The notes below the pieces were generated by a model that was given only the letters and a program-made list of their open reading frames with translations, made no database searches and was not told the DNA's origin. A stretch of DNA of 64,000 nucleotides from a phage: the sequence record PZ445442.1; one strand, written 5' to 3'. Below, in pieces: positions 26,278 through 61,996 of this stretch (position 1 is its first letter; each line of letters opens with the position of its first letter). The translations under genes and the position numbers were made by a program.

Positions 26278-26288
26278 TTTCTAAGACC

Positions 26289-26317: not shown

Positions 26318-26326
26318 GGAGTCATT

Positions 26327-28806: not shown

Positions 28807-28816
28807 GGAGACAGCT

Positions 28817-31736: not shown

Positions 31737-31791
31737 GTGAGTATAAAGGGGAGGCACTCCTCCCCACAAAAACTAAGGAGAGCACCAAACG

Positions 31792-33118: not shown

Positions 33119-33131
33119 AGAGTACAATCAA

Positions 33132-33832: not shown

Positions 33833-33844
33833 GGAGAGGGTGTT

Positions 33845-49374: not shown

Positions 49375-49620
49375 ATGAACAAAGGGTGGACATTTGTAGA
49401 CGGCGTTAAAAACATGCCTCTAGGAAAGTATATTGTAGCCATGGCAGATGAGAATGGCAAGGTTGATTTCGGAGTTTGCGAGGTTGTTCTTGCAGGATCT
49501 GGTGACTATGCTCACAAAACTGGGATAATTAACGGTCATTTCTACTTTGATTACAACCCTGTTGTGGCGTATATGGCTATGCCAGAGTTCGAGCTCCCAA
49601 AGGAAGGTGCAGATGTTTAA
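49375..49620 (+). CDS. hypothetical protein
   Basis: 81-aa ORF, RBS AGGAGA. Confidence 0.45.
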   Translation: MNKGWTFVDGVKNMPLGKYIVAMADENGKVDFGVCEVVLAGSGDYAHKTGIINGHFYFDYNPVVAYMAMPEFELPKEGADV

Positions 49621-49810
49621 GCTTAAATCTGCATGGAACATCGCTGTGGGGGACGAGATCCGTATCCCAGGTGGAAAGACCATTATGAAAATATCTCGTA
49701 TCGAGTACGAAGGTGATCGTGTATTTCATATCTTTGCAGAAGATGGTCGAGAAATTTATATACAGGCAGGCTCTCACATCTATATTCGTAAGAAAGGGGA
49801 GGACAAATGA
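49613..49810 (+). CDS. hypothetical protein
   Basis: 65 aa from ATG 49613 (RBS AAGGAAGG), start overlaps upstream stop. Confidence 0.4.
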   Translation: MFKLKSAWNIAVGDEIRIPGGKTIMKISRIEYEGDRVFHIFAEDGREIYIQAGSHIYIRKKGEDK

Positions 49811-50136
49811 CAGAGATCATCATTTCAACTGCAGGGTATGTATTCCTGACAATCATTGCGCTGACTATTCTGGTGGCGGTGTATGGATTTGTTATCCTTC
49901 CTATTCTTGAGACATTTAGTTTGTGTCGGTGTTGGAGAAAAGCTTACGGTCCACAACCATGGAAGGACTGGCCCCACCTGGTGCGCTTAGCGTTCTCTTA
50001 TGCTTACGATCACTCCAGTAGTGCATGCATAACCGGATACCACGCCCACAACTGGAGCTGGGAAGGGTTGAGGAAATGGAATGTTACAAAGACCATACCT
50101 CTGCGCATGTACAAACCTAAAAACAAAGACAACTGA
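49807..50136 (+). CDS. hypothetical membrane protein
   Basis: 109 aa with N-terminal hydrophobic segments; ATGA overlap with upstream gene. Confidence 0.45.
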   Translation: MTEIIISTAGYVFLTIIALTILVAVYGFVILPILETFSLCRCWRKAYGPQPWKDWPHLVRLAFSYAYDHSSSACITGYHAHNWSWEGLRKWNVTKTIPLRMYKPKNKDN

Positions 50137-50439
50137 TACTTGAAAATTCCTGGCATATCAAGTATAAGGGGGATTTCTAAAATGGATTTCCTCCTTTTGA
50201 TATTTCACCGGGCTGGATATTTTAAAATTCTTAGAAAATCAGAAAATGGATCGAAAACTAAAATGGATTTTTCAGAGTAGGCGCGACAAGCTGAATAGCT
50301 CATCCTATCGTTTGCACCATATTCCAGACCACCATTATAGATTTCCCACACATGCTAACCTCCCTCTACTAGAACTTCCTCCACTTACCCTTGACCTTCT
50401 ATGGTAACAATCTAACCACTATCTTGAAGTTGCGGTGCA

Positions 50440-50640
50440 GCTTTCCAGGTACTCGATCTACTTTTCATTTCAGGGCTTGGATTTTCTGAAAATTTTTCTC
50501 GATAAATTTCTCAGTACTCGATCTGTTTTTCGTTTTCTGAATCGGATTTTCTGGAAATCGTTCCGGATCTCGACCTGAAATTTTTGGGGACGAAATCTAT
50601 TTTTCGTTTTCAGAAATGGATTTTTAAAATTTCTATATGG
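50440..50640. repeat. iteron-like imperfect tandem direct repeats in non-coding region
   Basis: Three units of roughly 55-65 bp each containing GTACTCGATCT / TTTTCGTTTTC / GGATTTTCTG; AAAATGGAT recurs at about 50180, 50243, 50260, 50613. Confidence 0.5.
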
Positions 50641-50770
50641 GAATATTTTATGGGGCACTGTTTTATAGGAAATTGTTACGGAGGGTAATTAGCATGCTAA
50701 TTAAATTTATTAAATGCGAGGGATTCTTATTTAGAATTTTGAATGATAATTATTCTCGTTTGCAGAATAA

Positions 50771-50812
50771 CGGGCAGGCCCGGTGATTGTCTCCCGGCCC
50801 CTGCTGCCCCGG
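50771..50812. repeat. GC-rich palindromic element (copy 1)
   Basis: GGCAGGCCCGGTGATTGTCTCC core; inverted copy at 60344-60389. Confidence 0.45.
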
Positions 50813-50908
50813 CTTGTTATTATAGTATCACACAGGACAAAGAAGGCAAGGATTTTTTGCATAAATTTTTAAATGATAATGATAACCGTTCTCATTTTAT
50901 GAAGCGCC

Positions 50909-50950
50909 CATCCCCGGTGGTTGTCTCCCCCGTCACCGGTGCCTGCCGTC
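50909..50950. repeat. GC-rich palindromic element (copy 2, divergent)
   Basis: CCCCGGTGGTTGTCTCCCCCGTCACCGGTGCCTGCC, related to copy 1. Confidence 0.4.
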
Positions 50951-51101
50951 CTTTCGATAGGTATATTATGCCGCCTGGCGGGGCCGCTGTCAACACTTTT
51001 CAAAAAATTTTTCTAACCTGATGCGCTAACCGTTGCAACCTGGCGGGGCCAGCCTGGCAGGTCCGCACTATAAAGTAAACAGCTACAGAAGAGGTACAAA
51101 A

Positions 51102-51227
51102 ATGAAAGGTAATGCTACTCGCCTGGGAAATGTAGTGATTAATGATACGGAAGCTATCGCCCTGGTTGAAAAGGTTATGGCGGGAGCGTTGGAACATAAA
51201 GAAGAGTACGAAAAAAATGGTGGTTAA
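51102..51227 (+). CDS. small early protein
   Basis: 41 aa from ATG 51102 with RBS AGAGG; the track ORF upstream overlaps repeats. Confidence 0.35.
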   Translation: MKGNATRLGNVVINDTEAIALVEKVMAGALEHKEEYEKNGG

Positions 51228-51280
51228 CCTGGCGGGGGGCGGCAGGTGGATTCTATCATAAAAATAATTTAAAATAGTCG

Positions 51281-51308
51281 TTGACAACAAGGTTAATCAT
51301 GGTATTAT
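51281..51308 (+). promoter_or_regulatory. sigma70-like promoter
   Basis: TTGACA-16nt-TATTAT upstream of 51359 gene. Confidence 0.5.
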
Positions 51309-51358
51309 TACCCTACAAGGTGAACAACACCGCACTAACCAGTAAAGAGGATAAATTT

Positions 51359-51556
51359 ATGAACGCATACGGGATCAAAGTACGTCGCAACACTCGCCAG
51401 GTGGTCACCAATCAAGTGATTTGCCGGGTGGATGTAACCATCAACAACGGGCAAGGCCTTTATAAATTTCGTCGCGGCCATAGCTATACCCTGCAACAGC
51501 TTAATCGTTGCGCCCTGACAAAAGGTCAGATCAACCACTGGTTTAATAAAAAATAA
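51359..51556 (+). CDS. small early protein
   Basis: 65 aa from ATG 51359 (RBS AAAGAGGA); the track ORF start coincides with the promoter -35. Confidence 0.45.
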   Translation: MNAYGIKVRRNTRQVVTNQVICRVDVTINNGQGLYKFRRGHSYTLQQLNRCALTKGQINHWFNKK

Positions 51557-51559
51557 GTA

Positions 51560-51588
51560 TTGACATACAGTCCGACACCAAATACACT
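51560..51588 (+). promoter_or_regulatory. sigma70-like promoter
   Basis: TTGACA-17nt-TACACT upstream of 51621 gene. Confidence 0.5.
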
Positions 51589-51620
51589 AAAAGCACAAAA
51601 GACACTAAGAGGATAAAATC

Positions 51621-52019
51621 ATGAAAACCACTACCTTTAATTTTGATAATGCAGACTTTTCTTTTTCTGATGTCAAGAACTGCCGCCGTGATCGTGGATT
51701 TTACAAGGCTTATAATCTGGTGGGCCTGGACGATGACAATAATTTGCACGAAGTAGCTGAGATCCGGTATTATGCCGCCGCCAGCGGGAACACTCACTAC
51801 TGCGTGTTTTGGATTCACGACAACAAGAACAATAAGTACGGTTATACTGGCGGCAAGGCGAGCGGTCACGGTTACGATAAAGCTAACGCAGCACTTGAGA
51901 GCGCATTAAATGCTATGGGGATCACTGCCGACGGCTGGATCTACGAAGAAGAGTTTTTGTCGGCACTTGCTGACCACCTGGGCTATAAAAAACACATTGT
52001 AACATGCGCCCACGAATAA
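51621..52019 (+). CDS. hypothetical early protein
   Basis: 132-aa ORF, RBS AAGAGGA. Confidence 0.5.
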   Translation: MKTTTFNFDNADFSFSDVKNCRRDRGFYKAYNLVGLDDDNNLHEVAEIRYYAAASGNTHYCVFWIHDNKNNKYGYTGGKASGHGYDKANAALESALNAMGITADGWIYEEEFLSALADHLGYKKHIVTCAHE

Positions 52020-52025
52020 AAATCA

Positions 52026-52053
52026 TTGACACGCTGCAAAATTTAAGTAAACT
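52026..52053 (+). promoter_or_regulatory. sigma70-like promoter
   Basis: TTGACA-16nt-TAAACT; followed by stem-loop 52064-52082. Confidence 0.45.
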
Positions 52054-52063
52054 AGACACAAAA

Positions 52064-52082
52064 GGCGGGAATGTTTCCCGCC
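52064..52082 (+). other. 5'-UTR GC stem-loop (GGCGGGAA-TGT-TTCCCGCC)
   Basis: Perfect 8-bp stem, 3-nt loop, no downstream T-tract; between promoter and RBS of 52102 gene. Confidence 0.5.
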
Positions 52083-52101
52083 AGCACAAAGGAAAAAGAT
52101 C

Positions 52102-52497
52102 ATGAATAAGAACGTACGCCGCATCATGAACGAACTGGCAAACGATGAAAAAATTATTGATATGCATTTGGTCAACATTTGCCGCCGTTGTGTAACATAT
52201 AACAACCGCGCCGCAAAAGCGCGTGAGATGAACGCAAAAGGCACCTTAAAGCCCTTTCAGGTGGTTGTAAAATCTATAACTAGCGCAGCAGGCCAGGCGC
52301 AGGACCACAACAACGAGAGCGCTAATATTGATCCGTCTTACGTAATGAAACGGATCCGGACTTGCAAGAATAAAGAGCAGGTATATAACGTCATAGATTG
52401 GCTGGACTCCCTGGGCGATGTGGTTTACAATAGGTTTTCTGCAGCTATCGAGATCCAGCTTGACAGATTGGACGGGAAAGTACTAAAAACTTATTGA
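52102..52497 (+). CDS. hypothetical early protein
   Basis: 131-aa ORF, RBS AAAGGAAAAAG. Confidence 0.5.
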   Translation: MNKNVRRIMNELANDEKIIDMHLVNICRRCVTYNNRAAKAREMNAKGTLKPFQVVVKSITSAAGQAQDHNNESANIDPSYVMKRIRTCKNKEQVYNVIDWLDSLGDVVYNRFSAAIEIQLDRLDGKVLKTY

Positions 52498-52499
52498 GT

Positions 52500-52545
52500 T
52501 TATTTTTAGATGGCCTTGACACCAGGGCCATCAATAAAGTAAACT
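52500..52545 (+). promoter_or_regulatory. repeated palindrome-containing promoter cassette, copy 1
   Basis: TTATTTTTAGATGGCCTTGACACCAGGGCCATCAATAAAGTAAACT; TTGACA flanked by inverted repeat GATGGCC/GGCCATC; near-identical copies at 53120 and 56853. Confidence 0.5.
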
Positions 52546-52576
52546 AACCACAGTTGAGCGGAAAGGGGGCTTAAAG

Positions 52577-52696
52577 ATGAGCACTACACGCCAGCACACA
52601 AAGGTAACCATCATCGTTTGCATCATTGGGTACATCCTGGCGCAAATGTTGATGGGTAGCGCCAACGGTGTCGCAAAATTTTTCTTAAACTTTTAA
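52577..52696 (+). CDS. small hydrophobic peptide (39 aa)
   Basis: MSTTRQHTKVTIIVCIIGYILAQMLMGSANGVAKFFLNF; RBS AAAGGGGG; below the 60-aa track cutoff. Confidence 0.4.
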   Translation: MSTTRQHTKVTIIVCIIGYILAQMLMGSANGVAKFFLNF

Positions 52697-52724
52697 TTGA
52701 CAAGCTAACTTAAATCGATATAAT
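52697..52724 (+). promoter_or_regulatory. sigma70-like promoter
   Basis: TTGACA-16nt-TATAAT; followed by stem-loop GGGAA-AAC-TTCCC (52737-52749). Confidence 0.55.
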
Positions 52725-52775
52725 AAGCACATAAACGGGAAAACTTCCCAGAACACACAAAAGGAGAAAAACACC

Positions 52776-53117
52776 ATGACTACTATGACCGCCTCAGAAA
52801 AAGCTATGCAGATCGCTGAACTGAAAAAACAGATCGCAGACCTTGAGAATAAGATCGATAACTTTGAAATCGACGAGGACAAGTACGACGAAAACTATGA
52901 TGAATGGTTAGACGAGATCTACGGCGAAATTATGATCGGAAACATTTCTTTTCTTCCGTCGCGTATCCTCAAGGAGCTAGATCCTATCGCTTACCGCTGC
53001 GGATTTAGCGACTACATCGACAGCCTGGATATTGAGGACGATGAAGAATACCAGGAATTACAGACAGAGTTAGAAGAAGCAAAAGAAGAGCTTGCGGAGC
53101 TGGAAGAAAACGAGTAA
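52776..53117 (+). CDS. highly acidic early protein
   Basis: 113 aa, very Asp/Glu-rich with coiled-coil-like N-terminus; RBS AAAGGAGAAA. Confidence 0.5.
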   Translation: MTTMTASEKAMQIAELKKQIADLENKIDNFEIDEDKYDENYDEWLDEIYGEIMIGNISFLPSRILKELDPIAYRCGFSDYIDSLDIEDDEEYQELQTELEEAKEELAELEENE

Positions 53118-53119
53118 GC

Positions 53120-53165
53120 TTATTTTTAGATGGCCTTGACACCAGGGCCATCAATAAAGTAAACT
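53120..53165 (+). promoter_or_regulatory. repeated palindrome-containing promoter cassette, copy 2
   Basis: Identical 46-bp element to 52500-52545. Confidence 0.5.
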
Positions 53166-53206
53166 TTATACTGTTAACACTGAACTAATGCATAGGAGTT
53201 AAAACC

Positions 53207-53452
53207 ATGGCAGCACTAATCACCAAATATTATGCCCCTACCAACACCAAAAGCGCCCGTATCATGGTAAAAGGCTTCGGACGTAAAAAGGTGTACACCT
53301 GGGATTATGCCTTAGACACGGAAGACAACTACACCAACGCAATGACCGATTTTATTAATGAACTAAATAAGCAGATCTTGACAAGTTATAAAGTGACCGA
53401 TATTGCTTATATAGGTGAAGGCGGGATCTGTTTTGTAGGCATTGTGAAATAG
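53207..53452 (+). CDS. hypothetical early protein
   Basis: 81-aa ORF, RBS AGGAG. Confidence 0.45.
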   Translation: MAALITKYYAPTNTKSARIMVKGFGRKKVYTWDYALDTEDNYTNAMTDFINELNKQILTSYKVTDIAYIGEGGICFVGIVK

Positions 53453-53500
53453 TTATTTTTTCGGTGGTCCTGGTTGCAGGGCCATCTATAAAGATAATTT
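53453..53500 (+). promoter_or_regulatory. degenerate copy of the repeated promoter cassette
   Basis: TTATTTTTTCGGTGGTCCTGGTTGCAGGGCCATCTATAAAGATAAT: same layout with substitutions. Confidence 0.4.
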
Positions 53501-53526
53501 ATTAACACCATGAAAGGAGAAAGTAC

Positions 53527-54066
53527 ATGATCAGCGGGGCAAGTTTTATTATTGGCGCTATTGCTACGGCTTTAATTGTAAATAAGATCCAGGATAAAAA
53601 GGAAAGAGGAAGTACCGCCCTTGCAGAATATCCATTTTGGGCATTCAACGATAACGAAGATTATATTATAAAGTATAAAAATAAAGAAGGTGACCAAGTA
53701 ACACCGCGACCGATCCCGGCTTACAAAATGCAGGAAACACTATACCGCCTGGAGGCGGGAGGCGCAAAAATTGTAGACTTTTGGGGATACGACCACACAG
53801 ATCAGGAAGTTATAAAGCGCCGTATCCGGGCTATTCAGGCCAATATTGAAGTTAGCAAGGGGGAATATATGAAAATTAATTTCGAGAAAATTGTAAAGCG
53901 CCCTCATGATTCCGAAGAGCTGCCAGAACGCCGCCAGCGTAACAATAAACTGAATAAGCCAAAAAGGTTTGGGAAGATCTGGCGTAATCATTATGATCGT
54001 AAATTGCCCGGCCTACTTTTGGAACGTGAACGACAGGCAGAACGATACCGCCATAAAGACAAATAA
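53527..54066 (+). CDS. hypothetical membrane-anchored early protein
   Basis: 179 aa; N-terminal hydrophobic helix then basic C-terminus; RBS AAAGGAGAAAG. Confidence 0.5.
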   Translation: MISGASFIIGAIATALIVNKIQDKKERGSTALAEYPFWAFNDNEDYIIKYKNKEGDQVTPRPIPAYKMQETLYRLEAGGAKIVDFWGYDHTDQEVIKRRIRAIQANIEVSKGEYMKINFEKIVKRPHDSEELPERRQRNNKLNKPKRFGKIWRNHYDRKLPGLLLERERQAERYRHKDK

Positions 54067-54074
54067 CAACCAAC

Positions 54075-54100
54075 GCCCCGCCATTGTGCGGGGCTTTTTA
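54075..54100 (+). terminator. Rho-independent terminator
   Basis: GCCCCGC-CATTGT-GCGGGGC followed by TTTTTATTT. Confidence 0.65.
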
Positions 54101-54307
54101 TTTCTATCCTACGAATAGCGCCCCTGGTTGGCCCCACAAACGCCACAAAAGCCCCTACCTATGCAATCCCCTTTCTTGACCTGAAAACAACGTCTAGGGC
54201 CGTTTTATGGCGTTAAAAATATTATTGACAGTGATTTTATTCAAAGCTTGACACCTTGGAATAGTCCGGATATACTAACCACATCAAAGCAAGAAGGAGT
54301 AAACGCC

Positions 54308-54568
54308 ATGCGTAAATTAAAAAATTTTGATAAAGTAGATGTTGTCCTGAATAATTTTTACTACTGCAATAATAAAGCCGTTTGGTGGCGTGATAGCTCC
54401 ACCGATAAAGTTAAAGCGCGCTTTCTCCAGGGGCACTGGCAAGGCCGCCCAGTGATTAAAATCTTAGGGCAATTGGTAGCGTTTAAAAATTGCCACCGTG
54501 TTGACGACGTTGAAGATATTTTGAACATTTTACGCCACAATAATTTAAAAAATAGTGTTGACAAGTAA
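54308..54568 (+). CDS. hypothetical early protein
   Basis: 86 aa from ATG 54308 (RBS AAGGAG); promoter TTGACA-17-TATACT upstream at about 54208-54236. Confidence 0.45.
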   Translation: MRKLKNFDKVDVVLNNFYYCNNKAVWWRDSSTDKVKARFLQGHWQGRPVIKILGQLVAFKNCHRVDDVEDILNILRHNNLKNSVDK

Positions 54569-54585
54569 GCCTCAATAAGTATACT
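54558..54585 (+). promoter_or_regulatory. sigma70-like promoter
   Basis: TTGACA-16nt-TATACT; followed by stem-loop GGCGGGAA-AAC-TTCCCGCC (54596-54614). Confidence 0.55.
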
Positions 54586-54642
54586 TAAACACACAGGCGG
54601 GAAAACTTCCCGCCACTAACAAAGAAAATAGGAGAAAATATC

Positions 54643-55266
54643 ATGACCACCGTTAACATTACTACAGGTTACAATTTATCTTTCGACGTGCTGACCGACG
54701 AACAAAAAGAAAAAGCCGTTGAAATGGTCCGCGAAAGAGAAGAACACAGCGGGGATAATTTTTTTGCAGAAAGTGTAATTGAATACTATAAAGAATATGT
54801 TTTTCCAGAGTATGGCCTTGAAGATACCGAAGTACATTGGTCAGGCTTTTGGTGCCAGGGTGACGGCGCGTCAATCAGTGCGGAAAACGTGGATTTAGAA
54901 AAATTCTTGCGTAAAGTAAAGGCCCTGACCAAGTTCCGATCAATTCGTCACTTGTTCGGCACAATGCACGATGGCGAGCTATCCGCAAGTGTTGAGCGTG
55001 ATCCATATAGCCGCTATAGTCACGAAAACACTGTAAGCGGGTACATCGATACTACATGGCTAGACCTGACCGCCAAACAAGAAAATAAAGTGGAAGATCT
55101 GGAAGAGCTGATCACCGAGACGGTACGGGAGCTATCCCGCAAGGTTTACGTAGACCTGGAGGAGGCCTATCTTGAGCAATTTACCGCCGAAAACTTGATC
55201 GGCCTTATCGAGGCAAATGATTGGCGGTTTGATGTGGATGAGCATGGCGAGATGAGTTTTTCATAA
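54643..55266 (+). CDS. hypothetical acidic early protein
   Basis: 207-aa ORF, RBS AGGAGAAAA. Confidence 0.5.
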   Translation: MTTVNITTGYNLSFDVLTDEQKEKAVEMVREREEHSGDNFFAESVIEYYKEYVFPEYGLEDTEVHWSGFWCQGDGASISAENVDLEKFLRKVKALTKFRSIRHLFGTMHDGELSASVERDPYSRYSHENTVSGYIDTTWLDLTAKQENKVEDLEELITETVRELSRKVYVDLEEAYLEQFTAENLIGLIEANDWRFDVDEHGEMSFS

Positions 55267-55311
55267 ATAAAGTGTTGCAATAATCTAAAAACCTGCTATA
55301 TTAAAACTCAA

Positions 55312-55330
55312 GGGGCAAGACGTTTGCCCC
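55312..55330 (+). other. 5'-UTR GC stem-loop
   Basis: GGGGCAA-GACG-TTGCCCC between a TTGCAA/TATATT promoter-like element and the RBS of 55356. Confidence 0.45.
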
Positions 55331-55355
55331 CACACAAAACAAAGAGGAAAACATC

Positions 55356-55736
55356 ATGAAAAACACTACTAAAGCTATTGACACCGTCATGTTTAACCTG
55401 GTTACATTCCGTGAAGATATGAAAGATCTTCCTCGTGAAACAGTGTGCGACCATATCGAAAACTATCGCAAACTAATCAAAGAGTTGCCTTTAAAACGTG
55501 ATCAATATGCGGCTAACGCCATGCTTAATGCCATGATCAAAAAGATGATCCAGTGTGATTTAACCCTGGCCTATGATTATGCAGGCGGTCGTTTTGCAGT
55601 ATACAATCAGCCCGTGCCCGGTATGAGCACCACCGAAGAATTGCACGCGCTCAATCTAAAACAAGACGTGTGGGATAGTATGCCTCGCGTGGTGGTATGG
55701 GTAGAAAGCGGAAAGATTTACGGCGATAATTTTTAA
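55356..55736 (+). CDS. hypothetical early protein
   Basis: 126-aa ORF, RBS AAGAGGAAAA. Confidence 0.5.
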   Translation: MKNTTKAIDTVMFNLVTFREDMKDLPRETVCDHIENYRKLIKELPLKRDQYAANAMLNAMIKKMIQCDLTLAYDYAGGRFAVYNQPVPGMSTTEELHALNLKQDVWDSMPRVVVWVESGKIYGDNF

Positions 55737-55743
55737 TCAGGTA

Positions 55744-55770
55744 GCAGGCGGCATATTTGCCGCCTTATTG
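55744..55770 (+). terminator. Rho-independent terminator
   Basis: AGGCGGCA-TATT-TGCCGCCT followed by TATTGTT. Confidence 0.5.
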
Positions 55771-55800
55771 TTAATCAGAACTGTAAAAGAGGTACATAGA

Positions 55801-56172
55801 ATGGAATTTATTATTTTGGCTGTATTTGTTGCCTTGTTCAACGCCTGGATCGCTGGCAAGATGGGTAGATCCGCCTTTTTATGGTTTATTATATCTATTT
55901 TCCTGGGGGTGGTTGCAACTATTGTACTTGTTATCCTTGCAATTGTTGACAAGGGGAATAATAGAAAGGGTAAAGTATTTTCAGACCTGTACGACGCTCA
56001 AACGTTTGTCAACGCCTATTATAGTGATCTTCCAGTCTCCCTACGCTGCAGCCTGGCACAACAAGTTTTCGATGAGGCTAAAACCAGAGATCAAGCCCAT
56101 GAGATATGTTTAACTGAGGCGGATCGCCTATTTGAGAGGAATAGAAAATATGTGGGCCAACCGTTTAAATAA
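55801..56172 (+). CDS. small membrane protein
   Basis: 123 aa from ATG 55801 (RBS AAGAGG); two predicted TM helices in the N-terminal half. Confidence 0.45.
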   Translation: MEFIILAVFVALFNAWIAGKMGRSAFLWFIISIFLGVVATIVLVILAIVDKGNNRKGKVFSDLYDAQTFVNAYYSDLPVSLRCSLAQQVFDEAKTRDQAHEICLTEADRLFERNRKYVGQPFK

Positions 56173-56371
56173 TGCCACATTAATTAATCCCTTTAGTGAA
56201 GATTTGAAGCCAGCCGCCTGGCGTGATGGATTCAATAACGAACGCTTTATTTTCAAGCCTGATCTTGAGGAATTTTATAACAATGGATCGAACAACGACA
56301 GAGATAATTTTTCTTGTGGTGTGCGTAGTGATGGTACTCCTGGGGGCCATTGTAAACCACGTCACTACTAA
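56150..56371 (+). CDS. hypothetical early protein
   Basis: 73 aa from ATG 56150 (RBS GAGAGGAA). Confidence 0.4.
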   Translation: MWANRLNNATLINPFSEDLKPAAWRDGFNNERFIFKPDLEEFYNNGSNNDRDNFSCGVRSDGTPGGHCKPRHY

Positions 56372-56391
56372 CAGGGGGAAAGGGGGAGACG

Positions 56392-56511
56392 ATGACACCC
56401 AAGGATAAGCCCCGCACCGATAAGGCGCGCCGTGTTATGGTATGGCTTGAGATCATCGCCCTTGAAATATTGTTAGGGGTAGGGATGTACTTTATCGCTG
56501 TAAGTAACTAA
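56392..56511 (+). CDS. small hydrophobic peptide (39 aa)
   Basis: MTPKDKPRTDKARRVMVWLEIIALEILLGVGMYFIAVSN; RBS AAGGGGGAG; followed by terminator. Confidence 0.4.
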   Translation: MTPKDKPRTDKARRVMVWLEIIALEILLGVGMYFIAVSN

Positions 56512-56514
56512 GAA

Positions 56515-56545
56515 CGGCCCCCCGATCATGGGGGCCTATCTTTTA
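56515..56545 (+). terminator. Rho-independent terminator
   Basis: GGCCCCC-CGATCAT-GGGGGCC followed by TATCTTTT. Confidence 0.55.
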
Positions 56546-56602
56546 AAAAAATTCTTCCGGGGTGTTGCAATCCGGTCCGGAATGTGGATAATAACAATCA
56601 AC

Positions 56603-56617
56603 GGGGAGCTAATCCCC
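56603..56617 (+). other. 5'-UTR GC stem-loop
   Basis: GGGGA-GCTAA-TCCCC downstream of a TTGCAA...GATAAT promoter-like element, upstream of RBS of 56649. Confidence 0.4.
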
Positions 56618-56648
56618 ACCACCACAAAAACCAGAAAGGAGAAACAAA

Positions 56649-56849
56649 ATGAGCAACAATATCCGCGTTATTAACTTCAAAAAAGAAGAAAAAATTGCCG
56701 TGCTGATTGACGGTCAAGAAATCTTCAAGGGCGACTATGAAGATCATCAAACGGCGATTAGTATCACTCGCGTGATTGGTTACCATAATTTTTACCCCCA
56801 AGGCGCTGAGGCAGCGGTTAAACGAATCAAAGAGATTGTAGGCCTGTAA
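56649..56849 (+). CDS. hypothetical early protein
   Basis: 66-aa ORF, RBS AAAGGAGAAA. Confidence 0.45.
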   Translation: MSNNIRVINFKKEEKIAVLIDGQEIFKGDYEDHQTAISITRVIGYHNFYPQGAEAAVKRIKEIVGL

Positions 56850-56852
56850 AAT

Positions 56853-56897
56853 TTATTTTTAGATGGCCTTGACTCCAGGGCCATCAATAAAGTAAAT
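56853..56897 (+). promoter_or_regulatory. repeated palindrome-containing promoter cassette, copy 3
   Basis: TTATTTTTAGATGGCCTTGACTCCAGGGCCATCAATAAAGTAAAT, two substitutions relative to copies 1-2. Confidence 0.5.
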
Positions 56898-56943
56898 TTA
56901 AACCCTGTTAAAAATACCACGCAGTTAACAAGGAGTGATAGAC

Positions 56944-57243
56944 ATGTTTATCCAGGCTAATAATCTTTATTTCTTTGATGGTCAGATCGTAGACGGCGTG
57001 GAGGTGGAAATCACCGGGTGCCCTAGCGGTCAGGTTATGACTTTTCGGAATAATGCCTTTGATGATTCTCATATCGTTATGAGAATGGAAGTTAGTAAGC
57101 TGGATGACAAGAAAACACTTATCGACTATTCCGTCAAAGATCATCCAGACTACCACATGATCTATGGTGATTTGTGCATTGTTGACCGTGACAAGGTTGG
57201 CGGCATTGTGATCGCTATTGTGAACGATGTTTTCTCAAACTAA
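56944..57243 (+). CDS. hypothetical early protein
   Basis: 99 aa from ATG 56944 (RBS AAGGAG). Confidence 0.45.
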   Translation: MFIQANNLYFFDGQIVDGVEVEITGCPSGQVMTFRNNAFDDSHIVMRMEVSKLDDKKTLIDYSVKDHPDYHMIYGDLCIVDRDKVGGIVIAIVNDVFSN

Positions 57244-57260
57244 TTTCAGCAGGTAATTTT

Positions 57261-57611
57261 ATGAAAGTAAAACTATATTACCTTAATGAGCTTAACCCCC
57301 TTGCCCAGGTCCGCGCCCTGGCTAATACCTTGATTTGTGAGAAATCTGTATATTGTGTTGAGCTTAACGCCATGCGTGAACGTCTCAAAGGTGGTTACTT
57401 TGACATCCATGCTGCAATCAACGGCCTGAATATAGAATTTATCCGCTTACGTAACAGCCGCCAGAATCTGGCAAGAATGGAACAAGATCCGGCCCACCTT
57501 CGTAAGCTGGTTATTGAAAATCATCTGATGTTTAATGCCGATGGTGATTATTACCATTTTCACCGTAAACGCTGGTACCGTAGCGGCAATATAGGAAAGA
57601 ATGCAAAATAA
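57261..57611 (+). CDS. hypothetical early protein
   Basis: 116-aa ORF. Confidence 0.45.
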   Translation: MKVKLYYLNELNPLAQVRALANTLICEKSVYCVELNAMRERLKGGYFDIHAAINGLNIEFIRLRNSRQNLARMEQDPAHLRKLVIENHLMFNADGDYYHFHRKRWYRSGNIGKNAK

Positions 57612-57647
57612 GGCCCCTGGCAGGGCCTGCAGCGATATAATCACATA

Positions 57648-57680
57648 AAGGCTATGCGGTTGCATAGCCTTTATTATTTT
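57648..57680 (+). terminator. Rho-independent terminator
   Basis: AAAGGCTATGC-GGT-TGCATAGCCTTT followed by ATTATTTT. Confidence 0.6.
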
Positions 57681-57820
57681 GGCGTTACAGCGGCCCCCAA
57701 GGCGCTTAAAAAATTTTTAAAGAAGTACTTGCATCAAGTCCTACAATATGGATAATAAAGGGTGTCGGGGGGGGGCGGTGAGGCCTCCAATCATTAACCG
57801 GATAGATAGGAGTTAAAACC

Positions 57821-58105
57821 ATGGCTATTGTTACCGTTGGCGATGTAGTGGAAATGGAAGCAAAATACTTAAAAGCGGGTATGCATATCCTACGCAACGA
57901 TCTTGAACTAGTCCTGACAATGGTTGACTATAACCCAGGGCAAGATTATCCAAGCATCGACTACTTTTTTGAGTATGTTGATGAAGAGTTGAAAGAGGAT
58001 GAGGCCTATTGCGGTGAGTTCTGCAATTTCTTTTGTCCTGATGAGGTTGTAAAGGTTATCTATCAACCTGGCGTACCTTTCCCGCTGCACGCTATCAATA
58101 AATAA
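57821..58105 (+). CDS. hypothetical early protein
   Basis: 94-aa ORF, RBS AGGAG. Confidence 0.45.
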   Translation: MAIVTVGDVVEMEAKYLKAGMHILRNDLELVLTMVDYNPGQDYPSIDYFFEYVDEELKEDEAYCGEFCNFFCPDEVVKVIYQPGVPFPLHAINK

Positions 58106-58168
58106 ACCTGGTGGGGCCGAAAAGGCCCCCTCCTGAAACTATGAAAAAATAAAGAGAGGTAAATCATC

Positions 58169-58402
58169 ATGATGGAACAAATTAAACGCGCTGAGTCTAT
58201 TAATGGCAATGTGATCTATTTTGTCAGCAAAAACGAAAAAGGCGTACCATATGCGGCGGTAATAGTACAACCTGACGGCGATTATTGGTTTACTGTATAC
58301 GGATCTTATTCTTTCGGGCGTCCGGTTCATGATAGAATTTTGAAAGTAGCAAATCCGACCGGGAAAAATATCACAGCAGAAAAATTTTTTGAAAATAGTT
58401 GA
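58169..58402 (+). CDS. hypothetical early protein
   Basis: 77-aa ORF, RBS AAGAGAGG. Confidence 0.45.
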   Translation: MMEQIKRAESINGNVIYFVSKNEKGVPYAAVIVQPDGDYWFTVYGSYSFGRPVHDRILKVANPTGKNITAEKFFENS

Positions 58403-58426
58403 CATGACCATATAAGACTGTAATAT
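58399..58426 (+). promoter_or_regulatory. sigma70-like promoter
   Basis: TTGACA-16nt-TAATAT; followed by stem-loop about 58437-58453. Confidence 0.5.
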
Positions 58427-58478
58427 ATAAATCAAAGGGGGGCAACAAGCCCCACCAACCACAAAGAGGATAAAAATC

Positions 58479-58658
58479 ATGGCTATTATTGCAAAGACTG
58501 AGATCGTAGGCTTAGATTCTATTCTCCTCGCATATGAGGAAGCTATAGAAATGTATGTGGTTTCCTATGGTGAGTATATTCGTGAATATAAATCTATTGA
58601 TCTGGCTTTTGAATGTTATATTCGCCAGGTAAATAAAGCATATGATGATTATCGTTAA
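58479..58658 (+). CDS. small early protein (59 aa)
   Basis: MAIIAKTEIVGLDSILLAYEEAIEMYVVSYGEY...; RBS AAAGAGGA; just below the track cutoff. Confidence 0.4.
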   Translation: MAIIAKTEIVGLDSILLAYEEAIEMYVVSYGEYIREYKSIDLAFECYIRQVNKAYDDYR

Positions 58659-58664
58659 AATAGT

Positions 58665-58692
58665 TTGACAACAATTACAAATCGGGTAGAAT
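58665..58692 (+). promoter_or_regulatory. sigma70-like promoter
   Basis: TTGACA-16nt-TAGAAT; followed by conserved GTATTTCGTAGGGCGG and stem-loop 58705-58720. Confidence 0.5.
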
Positions 58693-58743
58693 GTATTTCG
58701 TAGGGCGGCAATGATGCCGCTCACAACTAAAAGAGAGATCATC

Positions 58744-58938
58744 ATGGCGCTTAAAAAACTAACAAGCAATACTCGTTGGGATGAAATCGACGGGGAAGTT
58801 TACATTTTTGCCCGTAAACCAGGGGATCAAAAATGGTCAAAGGCTTTTACTTGCCATCCTGCAACAATAGATCTGATAAAAAGTCAAGGACTACGTGAAG
58901 CAGTAGCAAGAAGTTTACTGATCCCTTGTAAAAATTAG
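58744..58938 (+). CDS. small early protein
   Basis: 64 aa from ATG 58744 (RBS AAAAGAGAG). Confidence 0.4.
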   Translation: MALKKLTSNTRWDEIDGEVYIFARKPGDQKWSKAFTCHPATIDLIKSQGLREAVARSLLIPCKN

Positions 58939-58939
58939 T

Positions 58940-58967
58940 TTGACAACAGTCAACAATCTGGTAAAGT
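58940..58967 (+). promoter_or_regulatory. sigma70-like promoter
   Basis: TTGACA-16nt-TAAAGT; followed by stem-loop GCGGGAA-TAC-TTCCCGC (58980-58996). Confidence 0.45.
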
Positions 58968-59015
58968 GTACTACATAGCGCGGGAATACTTCCCGCCATT
59001 AATGAGGGTAATTTA

Positions 59016-59153
59016 ATGAAAACTTTCAACGCAACAGCCTCGACAATTGGTTATATTATTACAGTACAAGCCGTGGATCTGGTAGCAGCAGCAAACAAGA
59101 TTAAAAAGATGATTCCGCCAGGTAGTGAATTTTCCGTTTGGGAAGTAAAATAA
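59016..59153 (+). CDS. small early protein (45 aa)
   Basis: MKTFNATASTIGYIITVQAVDLVAAANKIKKMIPPGSEFSVWEVK; RBS-like GAGGG upstream. Confidence 0.35.
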   Translation: MKTFNATASTIGYIITVQAVDLVAAANKIKKMIPPGSEFSVWEVK

Positions 59154-59236
59154 ATCTTGACAATAGTTTATTACTTGATAGACTGTATTTCGTAGGGCGG
59201 GGCAATAAGGCAACGCCCATTAATGAGGGTAGAATC

Positions 59237-59341
59237 ATGTTAGAGAAAATTTTCACGGTTGTAGTAGTTGGCCTGGCATTATCGGTTGGAGTGGTTGCAA
59301 CTATGGCTAACATGATCCTATCTTCCCACGGTATCGGTTAA
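59237..59341 (+). CDS. small hydrophobic peptide (34 aa)
   Basis: MLEKIFTVVVVGLALSVGVVATMANMILSSHGIG: single TM helix; RBS GAGGG; the track's longer ORF spans the promoter. Confidence 0.35.
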   Translation: MLEKIFTVVVVGLALSVGVVATMANMILSSHGIG

Positions 59342-59342
59342 G

Positions 59343-59567
59343 GTGAATCAAATGATCACGAATAAGACAGGTAAAACAGAATTTTTACGCGGCTTGCAAA
59401 TAGGTAAGCCTGAGATCTGGCATTGCACTAAAACACCACGTGACGAAATGAAAGACTTCACCGCCACGCTGCAACGGGTAAAGATATCCATCACGCAGAA
59501 AAAGGCCTTGATAGTGGTGGAAGGTGAGATCCCTCAAACCGTTGTTATAGTTGAGCGTACAGCATAG
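59343..59567 (+). CDS. hypothetical early protein
   Basis: 74-aa ORF. Confidence 0.4.
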   Translation: MNQMITNKTGKTEFLRGLQIGKPEIWHCTKTPRDEMKDFTATLQRVKISITQKKALIVVEGEIPQTVVIVERTA

Positions 59568-59658
59568 TTTAATTTATAGCGATACCTGAAAATTAACCAA
59601 TAAATCATAAACAGGCGGTTACCGCCGCCTTAAACGTAGCAGAAAGAGGCTAGACACA

Positions 59659-59943
59659 ATGAAAAAGATGATCGCAGTAGTTGCCCTGGTTGTTGGACTT
59701 AATGCGCCTGTAATGGCTAAAGAGCTGGCAAAAGAGGTTAATCTAACGGATATCCATGCCGTCAATCAAATCGGGGTTACTTATCGCTTATGCCTTGCCG
59801 CTAAAACTTTTAATGACGGCACAACAGAGTACTACGGATTCGAGGGTATCCGGTGCGGTAAGCTTGCTCGCGACCTTAAGGAAGATCCAGACCTGGAAGA
59901 TCTGCCCATCACCGTAAACGGTAAAGCTTACGTAAACCGTTAA
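59659..59943 (+). CDS. small secreted/periplasmic protein
   Basis: 94 aa with signal peptide MKKMIAVVALVVGLNAPVMA; RBS AAAGAGG. Confidence 0.45.
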   Translation: MKKMIAVVALVVGLNAPVMAKELAKEVNLTDIHAVNQIGVTYRLCLAAKTFNDGTTEYYGFEGIRCGKLARDLKEDPDLEDLPITVNGKAYVNR

Positions 59944-59945
59944 CC

Positions 59946-60080
59946 ATGAGAAAGATAATCATCACCTTGGGGATTGTGGCTGGATCGCTGGCGCTCTTTC
60001 CCCTTATGGTTAGGTATGTGCTGATCAGTATTGTCCTGGTAGTCAGTGATCTATTGGGAACGGTTGGCACCTTGTTTTAA
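59946..60080 (+). CDS. small hydrophobic peptide (44 aa)
   Basis: MRKIIITLGIVAGSLALFPLMVRYVLISIVLVVSDLLGTVGTLF; start 3 nt after upstream stop. Confidence 0.35.
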   Translation: MRKIIITLGIVAGSLALFPLMVRYVLISIVLVVSDLLGTVGTLF

Positions 60081-60092
60081 AGAGCGATAAAA

Positions 60093-60284
60093 ATGAATAT
60101 CGAACAAGTTAGAAAGGTATTGGCGGTACTGCGTTATCATAATCATAGAAAGGTTATAGACGATCCTGATTATGTTGATTCAAGTCTGGAAGGGGATACA
60201 CTGCAAGCCATAAGCAACATGCAAGAATTGCTCAAGCGCATGACAGAGAAAAACCGACCGGACTACATAGGCGAAAAAATATAA
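60093..60284 (+). CDS. hypothetical early protein
   Basis: 63-aa ORF. Confidence 0.4.
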   Translation: MNIEQVRKVLAVLRYHNHRKVIDDPDYVDSSLEGDTLQAISNMQELLKRMTEKNRPDYIGEKI

Positions 60285-60300
60285 TCCTTATAAACTACAA

Positions 60301-60330
60301 AACAGGGCTTGCAATGGTCCTGTTTTTTGT
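60301..60330 (+). terminator. Rho-independent terminator
   Basis: AACAGG...CCTGTT stem followed by TTTTTG. Confidence 0.45.
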
Positions 60331-60343
60331 TATACTTGTTTCA

Positions 60344-60389
60344 CGGCAGGCACCTGGCGACGGGTGGAGACAATCACCGGGCCTGCCTG
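60344..60389. repeat. GC-rich palindromic element (inverted copy)
   Basis: GGCAGGCACCTGGCGACGGGTGGAGACAATCACCGGGCCTGCC; reverse complement matches the 50771 core. Confidence 0.45.
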
Positions 60390-60412
60390 TCATATAAGAA
60401 CTATAAAAACCG

Positions 60413-60441
60413 TTGACATCTGCCAGGTGGTGGGGTAACAT
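60413..60441 (+). promoter_or_regulatory. sigma70-like promoter
   Basis: TTGACA-17nt-TAACAT; followed by stem-loop GGGCA-AAAG-TGCCC (60453-60466). Confidence 0.5.
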
Positions 60442-60495
60442 TTATCTTGAAGGGGCAAAAGTGCCCACACAACAACCAGAAGAGAGGAAAACATT

Positions 60496-60768
60496 ATGTC
60501 AAGCTGGATTAATCAAGAAGTCGAATCACGTTTTAATGCTATTTGGGATCTCATCGAAAAAGAGGACGGAACATCAAGCCCTTATCTCAATAATCTTGAA
60601 TTCCATTTCGTGGAAGCGATGAACGCAGAACATGATCACGAAGGTGGTGCGGATGAGTTCGCTAAAGGGTATGGCTTCAACAATGCCAACGAAATGATCG
60701 AGGCGGTTGTACTCCAGGCTGAGGAAGATTATCAATTAAAAACGCTTGAATTCTGCCGCCGTAAGTAA
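60496..60768 (+). CDS. hypothetical acidic early protein
   Basis: 90-aa ORF, RBS AGAGAGGAAAA. Confidence 0.45.
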   Translation: MSSWINQEVESRFNAIWDLIEKEDGTSSPYLNNLEFHFVEAMNAEHDHEGGADEFAKGYGFNNANEMIEAVVLQAEEDYQLKTLEFCRRK

Positions 60769-60782
60769 TAAGATAATGACAC

Positions 60783-60796
60783 GGGCCAAAAGGCCC
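60783..60796 (+). other. 5'-UTR GC stem-loop
   Basis: GGGCC-AAAA-GGCCC upstream of RBS of 60829 gene. Confidence 0.4.
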
Positions 60797-60828
60797 ACTA
60801 ATCAGAACCACACAAAGAGAGAAAGAAA

Positions 60829-61047
60829 ATGACAACCCGTAAAATTAAAGTTGTTTGCATTGAATCGACTGGGGGCGCTTTTGTAGTTGGTCAGGAATAT
60901 AATGCGGTTTTAATGGGTACGGATTGGAAGGTTAAAGGCCTTAATGGTTACGAGTACGGCACTACTTGCGGCTTGCGTGGTCGAATCGGATACGTGAGTT
61001 TAGACAACAAAGAAAAATTTGTTTTCGACACCGTTGTGAGTAAATAG
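60829..61047 (+). CDS. hypothetical early protein
   Basis: 72-aa ORF, RBS AAAGAGAGAAAG. Confidence 0.45.
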   Translation: MTTRKIKVVCIESTGGAFVVGQEYNAVLMGTDWKVKGLNGYEYGTTCGLRGRIGYVSLDNKEKFVFDTVVSK

Positions 61048-61125
61048 CATGAATTGCTAAAGACTGATCTGCGAACTGCTGTATTATCAACTAATCAAAA
61101 CGAACCGCATAAAGAGGAAAACATC

Positions 61126-61389
61126 ATGAAACGTCTGGATCAGCTTAAATTAGTTCAGTACATGGCCTACAGAATTCTTGAAGTCCAAAAAGGTAGCAAA
61201 AAAGAGGTTTGCGAGAAAGCTTATAAGATCTTTACTCGCAAAAAAGATGACTGGATGCTACGCCAGACCAAAAAATCCGATATCCTGGGGTACCTGGAAG
61301 AAGAGATCCGGCTTGAAGAACAAGAAGAGATCCGCCGCAGTGAGGCAGATTATCAGGCAGCTTGGGAAAACTGGATGAGCAACAAATAA
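61126..61389 (+). CDS. hypothetical early protein
   Basis: 87 aa from ATG 61126 (RBS AAAGAGGAAAA). Confidence 0.45.
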   Translation: MKRLDQLKLVQYMAYRILEVQKGSKKEVCEKAYKIFTRKKDDWMLRQTKKSDILGYLEEEIRLEEQEEIRRSEADYQAAWENWMSNK

Positions 61390-61533
61390 TACAACAAGTT
61401 ACGGTCAGGGGGGTAATAAAGCCCCTTGATCACATAAAAATTATGCTATCCCTGGTTGACAGGGATCGGCAGTTTTGCTATATTCTTTTTTGAAGGGGAG
61501 TTGTAAGAAAATTAACTAAGAGGTAAAAACACC

Positions 61534-61953
61534 ATGAACATTAAATCTAATAATCCGGCATATAGCTTTGATAACGCTTTTTGTCACGGTCCGGCGGCGA
61601 AAGGATTCGAAATCGATGGTAAACTAATTATTGTCAATGTTGACGGGGAAGAGGTTGCAGTATATCCGGTGGCAGACGTTAAAAGCCGTCTACAATGCCG
61701 CATGGATGTTACCGCCTATCAGCTTGATCCGGTCCGCATAGTTGCCCTGGTCCTGGAAGAAGAAATTAAAGCCATGCACCATAGCAACAGATTTATTGGT
61801 GACGCGCAGGATAATATGAAAGTATGCCGCCATAAAGTTAATGAAGTGCTTAAAGAGTACGGCTATAAAGATCTTATGATCAAACGCGAGGAAAAATTCC
61901 GCTACCGTAACGACCTGGCAAATCGGATTTTTGAAATATACGAATCATTATAA
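61534..61953 (+). CDS. hypothetical early protein
   Basis: 139-aa ORF, RBS AAGAGG; TTGACA-17-TATATT promoter at about 61449-61477. Confidence 0.5.
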   Translation: MNIKSNNPAYSFDNAFCHGPAAKGFEIDGKLIIVNVDGEEVAVYPVADVKSRLQCRMDVTAYQLDPVRIVALVLEEEIKAMHHSNRFIGDAQDNMKVCRHKVNEVLKEYGYKDLMIKREEKFRYRNDLANRIFEIYESL

Positions 61954-61971
61954 TTTTTTAACTGAATTATC

Positions 61972-61996
61972 AAGGGGCTTAGGCCCCTTTCTTTTT
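61972..61996 (+). terminator. Rho-independent terminator
   Basis: AAGGGGC-TTAG-GCCCCTT followed by TCTTTTT; last clear signal before the non-coding repeat region. Confidence 0.65.

Follow-up and report, generated by a model that had tools for sequence, protein, structure and literature searches.

A conserved and apparently undescribed non-coding element downstream of early promoters in rV5-like coliphages and their relatives

The early region of an rV5-like coliphage contains GC-rich palindromic elements with a common core, and the question that they raise is whether they are sites at which a regulator binds DNA or structured elements that act as RNA. The stretch analysed, here called the window, is 64,000 nucleotides (nt) of phage DNA (record PZ445442.1). 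It is 100% identical to Escherichia phage EmilHeitz (Bas49, MZ501062.1, Vequintavirus; genome 139,980 base pairs, bp), a window position being the MZ501062.1 position minus 32,682. Three copies of the element, named E1, E2 and E3, lie in it (Table 1). Judged from their sequences, the most likely reading is that they are short structured RNAs and not sites of protein binding. They form a real, conserved and apparently undescribed non-coding family in rV5-like coliphages and their relatives; the searchable literature on the core motif and on Vequintavirus transcriptomes yielded nothing relevant. An initial annotation of the window had offered both readings, of which structured RNA elements fits the evidence and regulator binding sites fits it less well.

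The 22-mer GGCAGGCCCGGTGATTGTCTCC has exactly two matches, at 50773-50794 on the plus strand and at 60366-60387 on the minus strand, and shuffled sequences gave none. The inverted repeat around it reaches 28 nt at 93% (50767-50794 and 60366-60393). Both exact matches that the initial annotation reported, near 50771 and as the reverse complement at 60344-60389, are therefore present, and the diverged copy that it placed at 50909-50950 is real. The shared core CCGGTGRTTGTCTCC has its third perfect match at 50914-50928, which is the core CCGGTGGTTGTCTCC of E2, and a covariance model of the family gives 53 bits at that copy. The model has 14 training sequences, mainly E3-type copies, with E2 and E3 of the window among them. 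A genome-wide motif search, suggested at the same time, returns only the three named copies; neither pattern searches nor the covariance model found another in the whole 139,980-bp genome. E1 and E2 are parts of a tandem duplication of about 134 bp, in which a neighbouring AT-rich palindrome is duplicated too. The region of about 1 kb around them (50137-51100) has no credible genes. To its left is a block of plus-strand genes that includes DNA polymerase, and to its right is an array of small plus-strand early genes, most of which have a sigma70 promoter and a terminator of their own.

Table 1. Positions of the elements, their predicted promoters and the neighbouring repeats in the window
Feature	Position	Strand	Description
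E1 element	50765-50816	-	Core 50781-50793; exact 22-mer; covariance model 37.5 bits; fold z -1.6
E2 element	50899-50952	-	Core 50915-50927; covariance model 53.1 bits (copy in training set); fold z -0.9
E3 element	60340-60395	+	Exact 22-mer; covariance model 70.7 bits (copy in training set); fold z -2.7
Promoter of E1	50849-50819	-	TTGCCT (50849-50844), 19-nt spacer, TATAAT (50824-50819); score 11.8
Promoter of E2	50993-50965	-	TTGACA-17-CATAAT; 11/12 consensus matches; score 13.5
Promoter P1 of E3	60309-60336	+	TTGCAA-16-TGtTATACT; from promoter and terminator scan; same arrangement in relatives
Promoter P2	60413-60441	+	TTGACA-17-TAACAT; serves next early gene (ATG 60497); annotated promoter in Gotham record
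Three tandem repeats of 65-74 bp	50439-50624		Iteron-like GGTACTCGAT at 50448, 50494, 50513 and 50565
Fur-box-like palindrome TTGAATGATAATTATTCTC	50739-50757		Downstream of E1 in sense direction; 14/19 to Fur consensus
Fur-box-like site GATAATGATAACCGTTCTC	50875-50893		Downstream of E2; 16/19 to Fur consensus
CCTGGCGGGG copy 1	50974-50983	+	Inside E2 promoter spacer (promoter reads other strand)
CCTGGCGGGG copy 2	51039-51048	+	Right after TTGCAA (51033-51038)
CCTGGCGGGG copy 3	51228-51237	+	Right after stop of 41-amino-acid reading frame; hairpin ACCUG...CAGGU

Each element in the window has its own sigma70-type promoter 21-40 nt upstream, on the strand that reads GGAGACAAnCACCG. The 19-nt spacer of the E1 promoter is suboptimal. 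At E3, the -35 hexamer of P1 (60309-60314) sits in the loop of a terminator-like stem-loop (60299-60326), followed by the extended -10 at 60331-60336. The same placement holds for the family: over 31 distinct copies, the best sigma70 match upstream of the core scores 10.3 on average on the GGAGACAA strand; the corresponding values are 6.0 for the opposite strand and 5.0 for random windows, and 61% of the copies reach or exceed the 95th percentile of the background. When family copies are aligned on the core, the distance from the end of the -10 to the core is 21-40 nt, with a mode of 30. With promoters so placed, the predicted transcript would enter the GC-rich sequence after no more than about 10 nt. 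Since the promoters of E1 and E2 are on the minus strand, these two elements are read leftward, away from the early genes and opposite to the surrounding genes, and E3, which precedes the gene promoter at 60413, is read rightward. The initial annotation had the coordinates right, and its description of the elements as upstream of early promoters is correct for E3; for E1 and E2, two of the three copies, the strand and the relation to the promoter were wrong, as both lie downstream of their own minus-strand promoters.

Conservation extends well beyond the close relatives of EmilHeitz. In low-stringency BLAST, the left half of E1 and the adjacent palindrome are the sole conserved part of the region across the relatives listed, namely Phapecoctavirus, Mydovirus, Seunavirus, Certrevirus and Cronobacter phages, and Phapecoctavirus, Justusliebigvirus and Certrevirus have kept E3 together with the promoter upstream of it. 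The core is retained in Vequintavirus, Seunavirus, Certrevirus, Phapecoctavirus, Justusliebigvirus and the Pseudomonas genus Nankokuvirus while its flanks diverge; Mydovirus (KB57) and the Phapecoctavirus group have diverged versions. Core variants include CGAGAC in PVP-SE1 and ESCO13 and TTATC in the phAPEC8 group. Across Vequintavirinae and Stephanstirmvirinae, syntenic copies form an outward-facing pair 7-10 kb apart, with an E1-type and an E3-type copy on opposite strands (9.5 kb apart in EmilHeitz, about 8.7 kb in Gotham, 9.8 kb in ESCO13, 7.0 kb in CB7 and, weakly, 7.0 kb in KB57). PVP-SE1 and PAK_P3 have the E1-type copy only, and this syntenic copy is the one conserved in all groups. 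The single copy of the Nankokuvirus phages, for example PAK_P3 and Ab03, is identical in its core and 3′ flank to that of coliphage ESCO13 over 23 nt; a second, inverted copy was not found in PAK_P3. Pattern scans of IMG/VR gave more copies, some of them in contigs without DNA similarity to cultured phages. One unrelated uncultured contig, IMGVR_UViG_3300027123_000194, has six copies, each with its own promoter, and two of the six show the E3-like layout of terminator, promoter, element, second promoter and gene. Absence from relatives, which the initial annotation had considered, is thus not what is seen: the elements are conserved in two phage subfamilies and in Pseudomonas phages.

The family element is a GC-rich stem-loop of about 55 nt that starts at about +1 to +10 and displays a nearly invariant segment of 13-14 nt. 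The predicted E3 RNA, from about 60343, has a closing helix GGCAGGCA/UGCCUGUC, an inner hairpin CCUG-GCGA-CGGG and a 3′ bulge that holds the core GAGACAATCACCG (60367-60379). Predicted RNAs of the E3 type start 2-4 nt before the closing helix, which is GGCAGGCA/UGCCUGUC here and GCGGGCA/UGCCCGC in relatives. Their inner hairpin consists of CCUG, a loop of 3-4 nt (GCGA, GGGA, GCAA, GGAG, GAAG, GUAG or AUG) and CAGG, and after it come the core (G)GAGACAAnCACCG, left unpaired, the closing helix's 3′ strand and a UAUUC-like sequence. E2 is E3-like in its 5′ half (GGCAGGCACCGGUGACGGGGGAGAC) and has no closing 3′ arm. In E1, the core forms a loop closed by the helices GGGCA/UGCCC and GGCC/GGCC. The claim that each copy folds into a long GC stem is borne out for E3 (-23.9 kcal/mol; z relative to shuffles in Table 1, and -3.2 for the opposite strand), moderately for E1, and not for E2. 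The absence of a U-tract is upheld: the 9 nt beginning 9 nt past the core, at roughly the end of the helix, contain just 1-5 U, usually 3-5. No run of four U follows the elements except in PAK_P3 and one uncultured copy, so that they do not resemble intrinsic terminators, and a terminator scan calls none of the three in the window.

Pairing is maintained while the arms change. Among 48 distinct sequences retrieved with the covariance model, 79% of cells pair, compared with 35-49% for partners slid along the sequence; two-sided changes are found in 21 cells where 10.4 are expected, and the covariation score of 0.143, against 0.105 in shuffles and reached by 0/500 of them, is modest and supportive rather than conclusive because the alignment was fitted to the model and the sequences are related. 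The 14 close E3-type sequences pair in 81.5% of cells, compared with 37-52% for slid partners. G-U wobbles preserve the inner hairpin in DU_PP_IV (CUUG/CAGG) and in E3 and uncultured copies (CCUG/CGGG), and in KB57 all three repeated segments have changed together, to CUCC/GGAG/CUCC. This triple segment, in which the middle part can pair with either of two identical flanks, is found in 11/28 copies where 2.6 are expected, an arrangement that would permit a switch. The covariance model matches the family, all syntenic copies included, on the sense strand only, with one marginal exception.

These data bear on the reading of the elements as DNA sites, in which the 13-nt core and inverted repeats would be an operator or cruciform bound by a phage or host protein that, for example, shuts off early promoters from about +25 to +40. 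That the core is far more strongly conserved than the helices, that folding energy has no clear strand bias, and that the elements lie in regulatory DNA dense with palindromes and repeats would all suit such a site. However, the core is asymmetric, the arms change yet stay complementary through G-U wobbles that are A-C mismatches on the other strand, and a DNA site would not require the fixed position after a promoter, on one strand, that is seen in unrelated phages. This reading is quite unlikely.

Promoter placement, orientation, conservation, synteny and the capacity to fold are observed properties of the elements; from them we infer that the elements are transcribed and function at the RNA level. 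The reading tentatively preferred, which we hold at somewhat less than an even chance, is that the elements are transcribed and act in cis as nascent RNA, controlling whether host polymerase stops or proceeds at a weak hairpin, with the core as a binding platform. Each element would begin a very short early transcription unit from a host sigma70-type promoter, and its RNA would fold into a closed stem-loop of about 50-55 nt that leaves the core as a 3′ bulge or loop. Depending on the nascent leader, host RNA polymerase would then halt at the hairpin, which is weak and poor in U, or read past it, in the manner of an attenuator or of a polymerase-bound RNA such as put of phage HK022. The partner held by the core could be the polymerase itself or a phage or host protein, and the repeated CCUG, CAGG and CCUG segments might form either of two pairings, each of which precludes the other. 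Read-through from P1 into the early genes that follow would depend on E3, while E1 and E2, whose promoters face away from the early block, would control transcription that passes the Fur-box-like sites and enters the iteron array.

Several observations weigh against this proposal. The invariant 13-nt core could equally serve as a DNA site. Folding energy shows no clear preference for the sense strand (18 copies compared with 11). The closing helix is not universal, being missing in E2 and several distant copies (swap test p about 0.014), and it is for want of this 3′ arm that E2 folds no better than shuffles. Covariation is nearly zero among the 14 close E3-type sequences and modest in the larger set. 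No gene lies downstream of E1 and E2, and no plus-strand terminator was found between E3 and 61972, which leaves no obvious need for antitermination there. In the PAK_P3 record, no RNA is annotated at the position of the copy.

A structured RNA could also act in trans. In such a case, the element would be a stable small RNA that stands alone and is about 55-65 nt long. A helix would hide its 5′ end, and its exposed core would bind and titrate a conserved protein or RNA, for example a host factor or a defence component, with copy number setting the dose. The hairpin does close from about +1; E1, E2 and the PAK_P3 copy have no downstream gene; the PAK_P3 copy ends in GCGCGC followed by UUUUC, which is terminator-like; and the six copies of the uncultured phage each have a promoter. 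The rV5-like phage PhiTE uses a non-coding RNA decoy, pseudo-ToxI, at another locus (PMC3475682); a direct link was rejected, as the PhiTE RNA is also unrelated in sequence. On the other side, efficient formation of a 3′ end is doubtful with the 1-5 U that enterobacterial copies have in the 9-nt window just past the element, and no complementary target appears in the phage genome, in E. coli rRNA or in its spacers. Complementarity of the core to E. coli 16S, 23S and 5S rRNA and the rrn spacers is not above that of shuffled cores (longest match 9 nt), and the phage genome holds no other target site within 3 mismatches on the relevant strand. A trans-acting RNA is considered unlikely. As for its possible partners, the GGA of the core is not universal, being replaced in PVP-SE1 and ESCO13, which argues against CsrA-type binding. 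By eye, a CRISPR repeat, a T7-type primase site (TTGTC), CsrA (GGA) and RegB (GGAG) were each rejected, the relevant bases not being present in all copies. A bacterial origin, for example as a REP/BIME-like host repeat, was also rejected: the core pattern has 38 matches in 185,579 species genomes, all of them chance matches in GC-rich coding contexts of unrelated bacteria and none enterobacterial.

The surroundings of E1 and E2 suggest a link with replication. Downstream of both in the sense direction are the tandem repeats with their iteron-like motifs; they may be a replication origin, or else a conserved DNA-binding protein may bind there. The E1-type copy always points to a tandem repeat array 100-400 bp away, in which the 10-mer GGTWCTCGAY recurs 3-7 times per array in Vequintavirus, KB57, PVP-SE1, CB7 and PAK_P3; ESCO13 has different repeats at the equivalent place. 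An E1-type promoter might accordingly drive an origin-associated transcript into the array, opening the origin or priming replication as has been proposed for lambda oop or T4 oriE, with E3-type and multi-copy versions as secondary uses of the same cassette. This reading would best explain the geometry of the E1-type copy, which is the one kept in all groups, though not the core or the other copies. The conserved core would be left without a role, no iterons lie near E3 or near the elements of the six-copy phage, and Fur-box-like sites intervene between promoter and iterons. No origin has been mapped in these phages, and the rV5 paper saw only skew changes linked to transcription (PMC3606486). 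An origin transcript as the primary function is rather unlikely.

Of the intervening Fur-box-like sites, the palindrome beside E1 overlaps a weak plus-strand promoter-like site, TTGAAT-18-CAGAAT, and is conserved in PVP-SE1, KB57, CB7 and ESCO13. Enterobacterial phages have 1-4 such palindromes between element and repeats, matching the consensus at up to 16/19 positions, and ESCO13 has four in tandem with a spacing of about 30 bp (L046 19951-20060). The window contains 16 sites within 3 mismatches of TGATAATnATTATCA, compared with 5.8 in shuffles. The neighbouring palindromes resemble a Fur box in matching GATAATGATAATCATTATC at 14-16 of 19 positions, with TGATAAT half-sites; unlike a typical Fur box, they lie downstream of the sense promoters and not over them, and the copy in the Pseudomonas phage lacks them. 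The stretch from the Fur-box-like site to the iterons also contains, at 50686-50703, a perfect palindrome of 18 bp, TAATTAGCATGCTAATTA. Downstream of the E1-type promoter region, another conserved non-coding block, about 150 nt long, is common to Phapecoctavirus, Seunavirus and Mydovirus, with CTTTACAA repeats, CTACCGGCGATC and GTTAGCCCCGCCTTTTCGCCGTGGGGTGGCG (L046 20140-20320, L045 19140-19300, L080 17400-17530). A small minus-strand gene accompanies the block; EmilHeitz has neither.

A broader version of the preferred nascent-RNA proposal is rather improbable. It would make the elements a new class of nascent-RNA regulator acting directly on gammaproteobacterial RNA polymerase, put-like in function and unrelated in structure, in virulent myoviruses from Escherichia to Pseudomonas, with an ancestral copy that licenses transcription into an iteron-type origin. 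The hosts would be Escherichia, Salmonella, Klebsiella, Pectobacterium and Pseudomonas, and the regulator could be factor-independent or factor-assisted. If true, gating by host Fur in the enterobacterial phages would tie the early programme or the start of replication to iron status.

Exchange between copies is also evident. E2 is a chimera whose 5′ half is E3-like in EmilHeitz-type phages, and in IMG/VR contig 3300045988_140627 (L040) both tandem copies are E1-like (1149-1199 compared with E2), which indicates recombination or gene conversion between copies. The element could then be a mobile or recombination-prone cassette of promoter and stem-loop that has no dedicated function, the core being simply inherited cassette sequence. 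Arbiol et al. 2010 reportedly described promoter-early stem-loop (PeSL) cassettes in T4-type phages, in which a terminator-like hairpin surrounds a promoter, and the E3 promoter, with its -35 in a stem-loop followed by a T-run, has this layout. Other such cassettes in the window form a 49-nt repeat family (D1; 52497-52545, 53117-53165, 53451-53499 and 56850-56898), with a GC stem-loop GATGGCC...GGCCATC, a -35 TTGACA in the loop and then a -10. Two syntenic positions are nevertheless kept across subfamilies with little DNA identity elsewhere, and the core survives amid unalignable flanks even in a Pseudomonas phage, so that a cassette of this kind is a very unlikely explanation. PeSL features are present at the E3 promoter and in the 49-nt family and absent from the E1 and E2 promoters.

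The 10-mer CCTGGCGGGG occurs exactly three times, within 264 bp and always on the plus strand, and nine times with one mismatch allowed, where 1.8 are expected. The threefold recurrence between 50975 and 51240 noted earlier holds for this 10-mer; the 11-mer with a leading A occurs twice, since the first copy starts with G. Copy 2 lies within CUGGC/GCCAG/CUGGC repeats, upstream of TATAAA and an open reading frame (ORF) of 41 amino acids. CGCCAGG-type motifs are found at the equivalent promoters of ESCO13, PVP-SE1, DU_PP_IV and PAK_P3. All three copies belong to this one regulatory region, as GC-rich sequence in a promoter spacer or a hairpin. The 41-amino-acid ORF (51102-51227) is unannotated, has a good ribosome-binding site and matches PHROG 21957 (E 2e-21), and is probably a genuine small early gene that the record omits.

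Two annotated ORFs overlap the elements: bas49_0104 (92 amino acids, 50743-51021) spans E1 and E2, and bas49_0131 (29 amino acids, 60327-60416) spans E3. Substitutions in bas49_0104 fall on the three codon positions as 18:14:19, and its frame is broken in relatives by in-frame stops (L028) and frameshifts (L040). It has no Pfam family match, and its match to phrog_14993 merely mirrors the same ORF call in close relatives. Lacking a coding signature and interrupted in relatives, bas49_0104 is probably a mis-annotation, and a protein-coding reading of the E1/E2 ORF was rejected. For bas49_0131, there is no match in Pfam or PHROG.

Inverted copies 9.6 kb apart that bracket small early genes, as in T5, might also mark the boundaries of a long terminal repeat, or a pair of terminase sites. 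One public record, MG065655.1, which is named Campylobacter phage C2 and is actually a Vequintavirus, ends a few bases past E2, at about window 50955, the predicted start of the E2 transcript; this end may reflect chance or an assembly break at a GC-rich repeat. Vequintavirus terminal repeats are 458-459 bp (PMC7471380, PMC6563267), however, and the annotated repeat of Gotham (1-459) maps to about window 63409-62951, 2.5 kb beyond E3, so that a packaging boundary at E1 and E3 was rejected as almost certainly wrong. Homology with Gotham places the physical end of the genome, with its direct terminal repeat of 459 bp, at about 62951-63409. This inferred end falls inside an unannotated AT-rich stretch of 2.4 kb (within 61953-64000; GC 0.35 at 62-63 kb) that has direct and inverted repeats of its own at 62648-62799. 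Further Fur-box-like sites lie inside the inferred terminal repeat, at 63250-63264, 63268-63282 and 63366-63380.

If the elements are indeed structured RNAs, widespread and therapeutically used phages (rV5-like, phAPEC8-like and PAK_P3-like) carry a conserved non-coding RNA motif that is absent from Rfam and whose span GenBank annotates as hypothetical proteins; a covariance model could correct the annotation in several hundred phage genomes. Because they stand at both borders of the early block and beside an apparent replication origin, they offer a handle on the organisation of early transcription and the start of replication. A 13-nt core common to coliphages and Pseudomonas phages predicts a conserved binding partner, and the nearby Fur-box-like arrays raise the idea that iron status feeds into the phage programme. 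They would be of a known kind, namely promoter-proximal structured RNA of phage early regions, and the finding would be worth more if the link to the polymerase, the origin or iron were true.

The elements can be compared with several known systems. A search of Rfam at E <= 10 over 49500-61500 gave no match to them apart from a chance snoRNA (27 bits against a threshold of 58). In position they resemble HK022 put, an RNA that binds the beta' zinc-binding domain and suppresses pausing and terminators. Both lie downstream of early sigma70 promoters at the start of the transcript, as predicted here for 31 copies and for E1-E3, putL beginning within the first nucleotides, and both occur as two sequence-related, outward-facing copies in phages that rely on host RNA polymerase. 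Moreover, putL carries a -10-like NANNAT at +23 to +28 (PMC9378689), and about half of the family copies have GACAAT or GATAAT at a similar distance. In structure they are unlike put, whose length of about 70 nt is folded into two long stem-loops and a triplex, whereas the elements are about 55 nt with a closing helix, a short inner hairpin and a conserved bulge. Membership of the put family was rejected, the best hit of the family covariance model in HK022 24000-34000, with filters off, being 6.6 bits (E > 2). With the lambdoid nut sites they share a promoter-proximal RNA, here predicted, with a small hairpin, often with a GNRA-type loop (GCGA, GGGA, GCAA, GUGA or GAAA). Unlike nut, they have no boxA: neither CGCTCTTA with at most 1 mismatch nor the rrn boxA with at most 3 was found on the sense strand within 200-400 nt of the elements. 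They resemble the PeSL cassettes reported for T4-type phages in being repeated modules of promoter and stem-loop between small early ORFs, with signs of exchange between copies and, in the E3 type, a -35 inside the stem-loop followed by a T-run and the -10. They differ in the second hairpin after the promoter, predicted to be transcribed, which has an invariant 13-nt core and is syntenic across subfamilies and host genera. Finally, lambda oop RNA and the early transcript of T4 oriE are short early transcripts next to origin repeats. Neither is known to have anything that corresponds to the conserved core, and the family has extra copies away from iterons; like them, however, the E1-type element would give a short transcript, made by host polymerase, that starts beside the iterons and points into the array.

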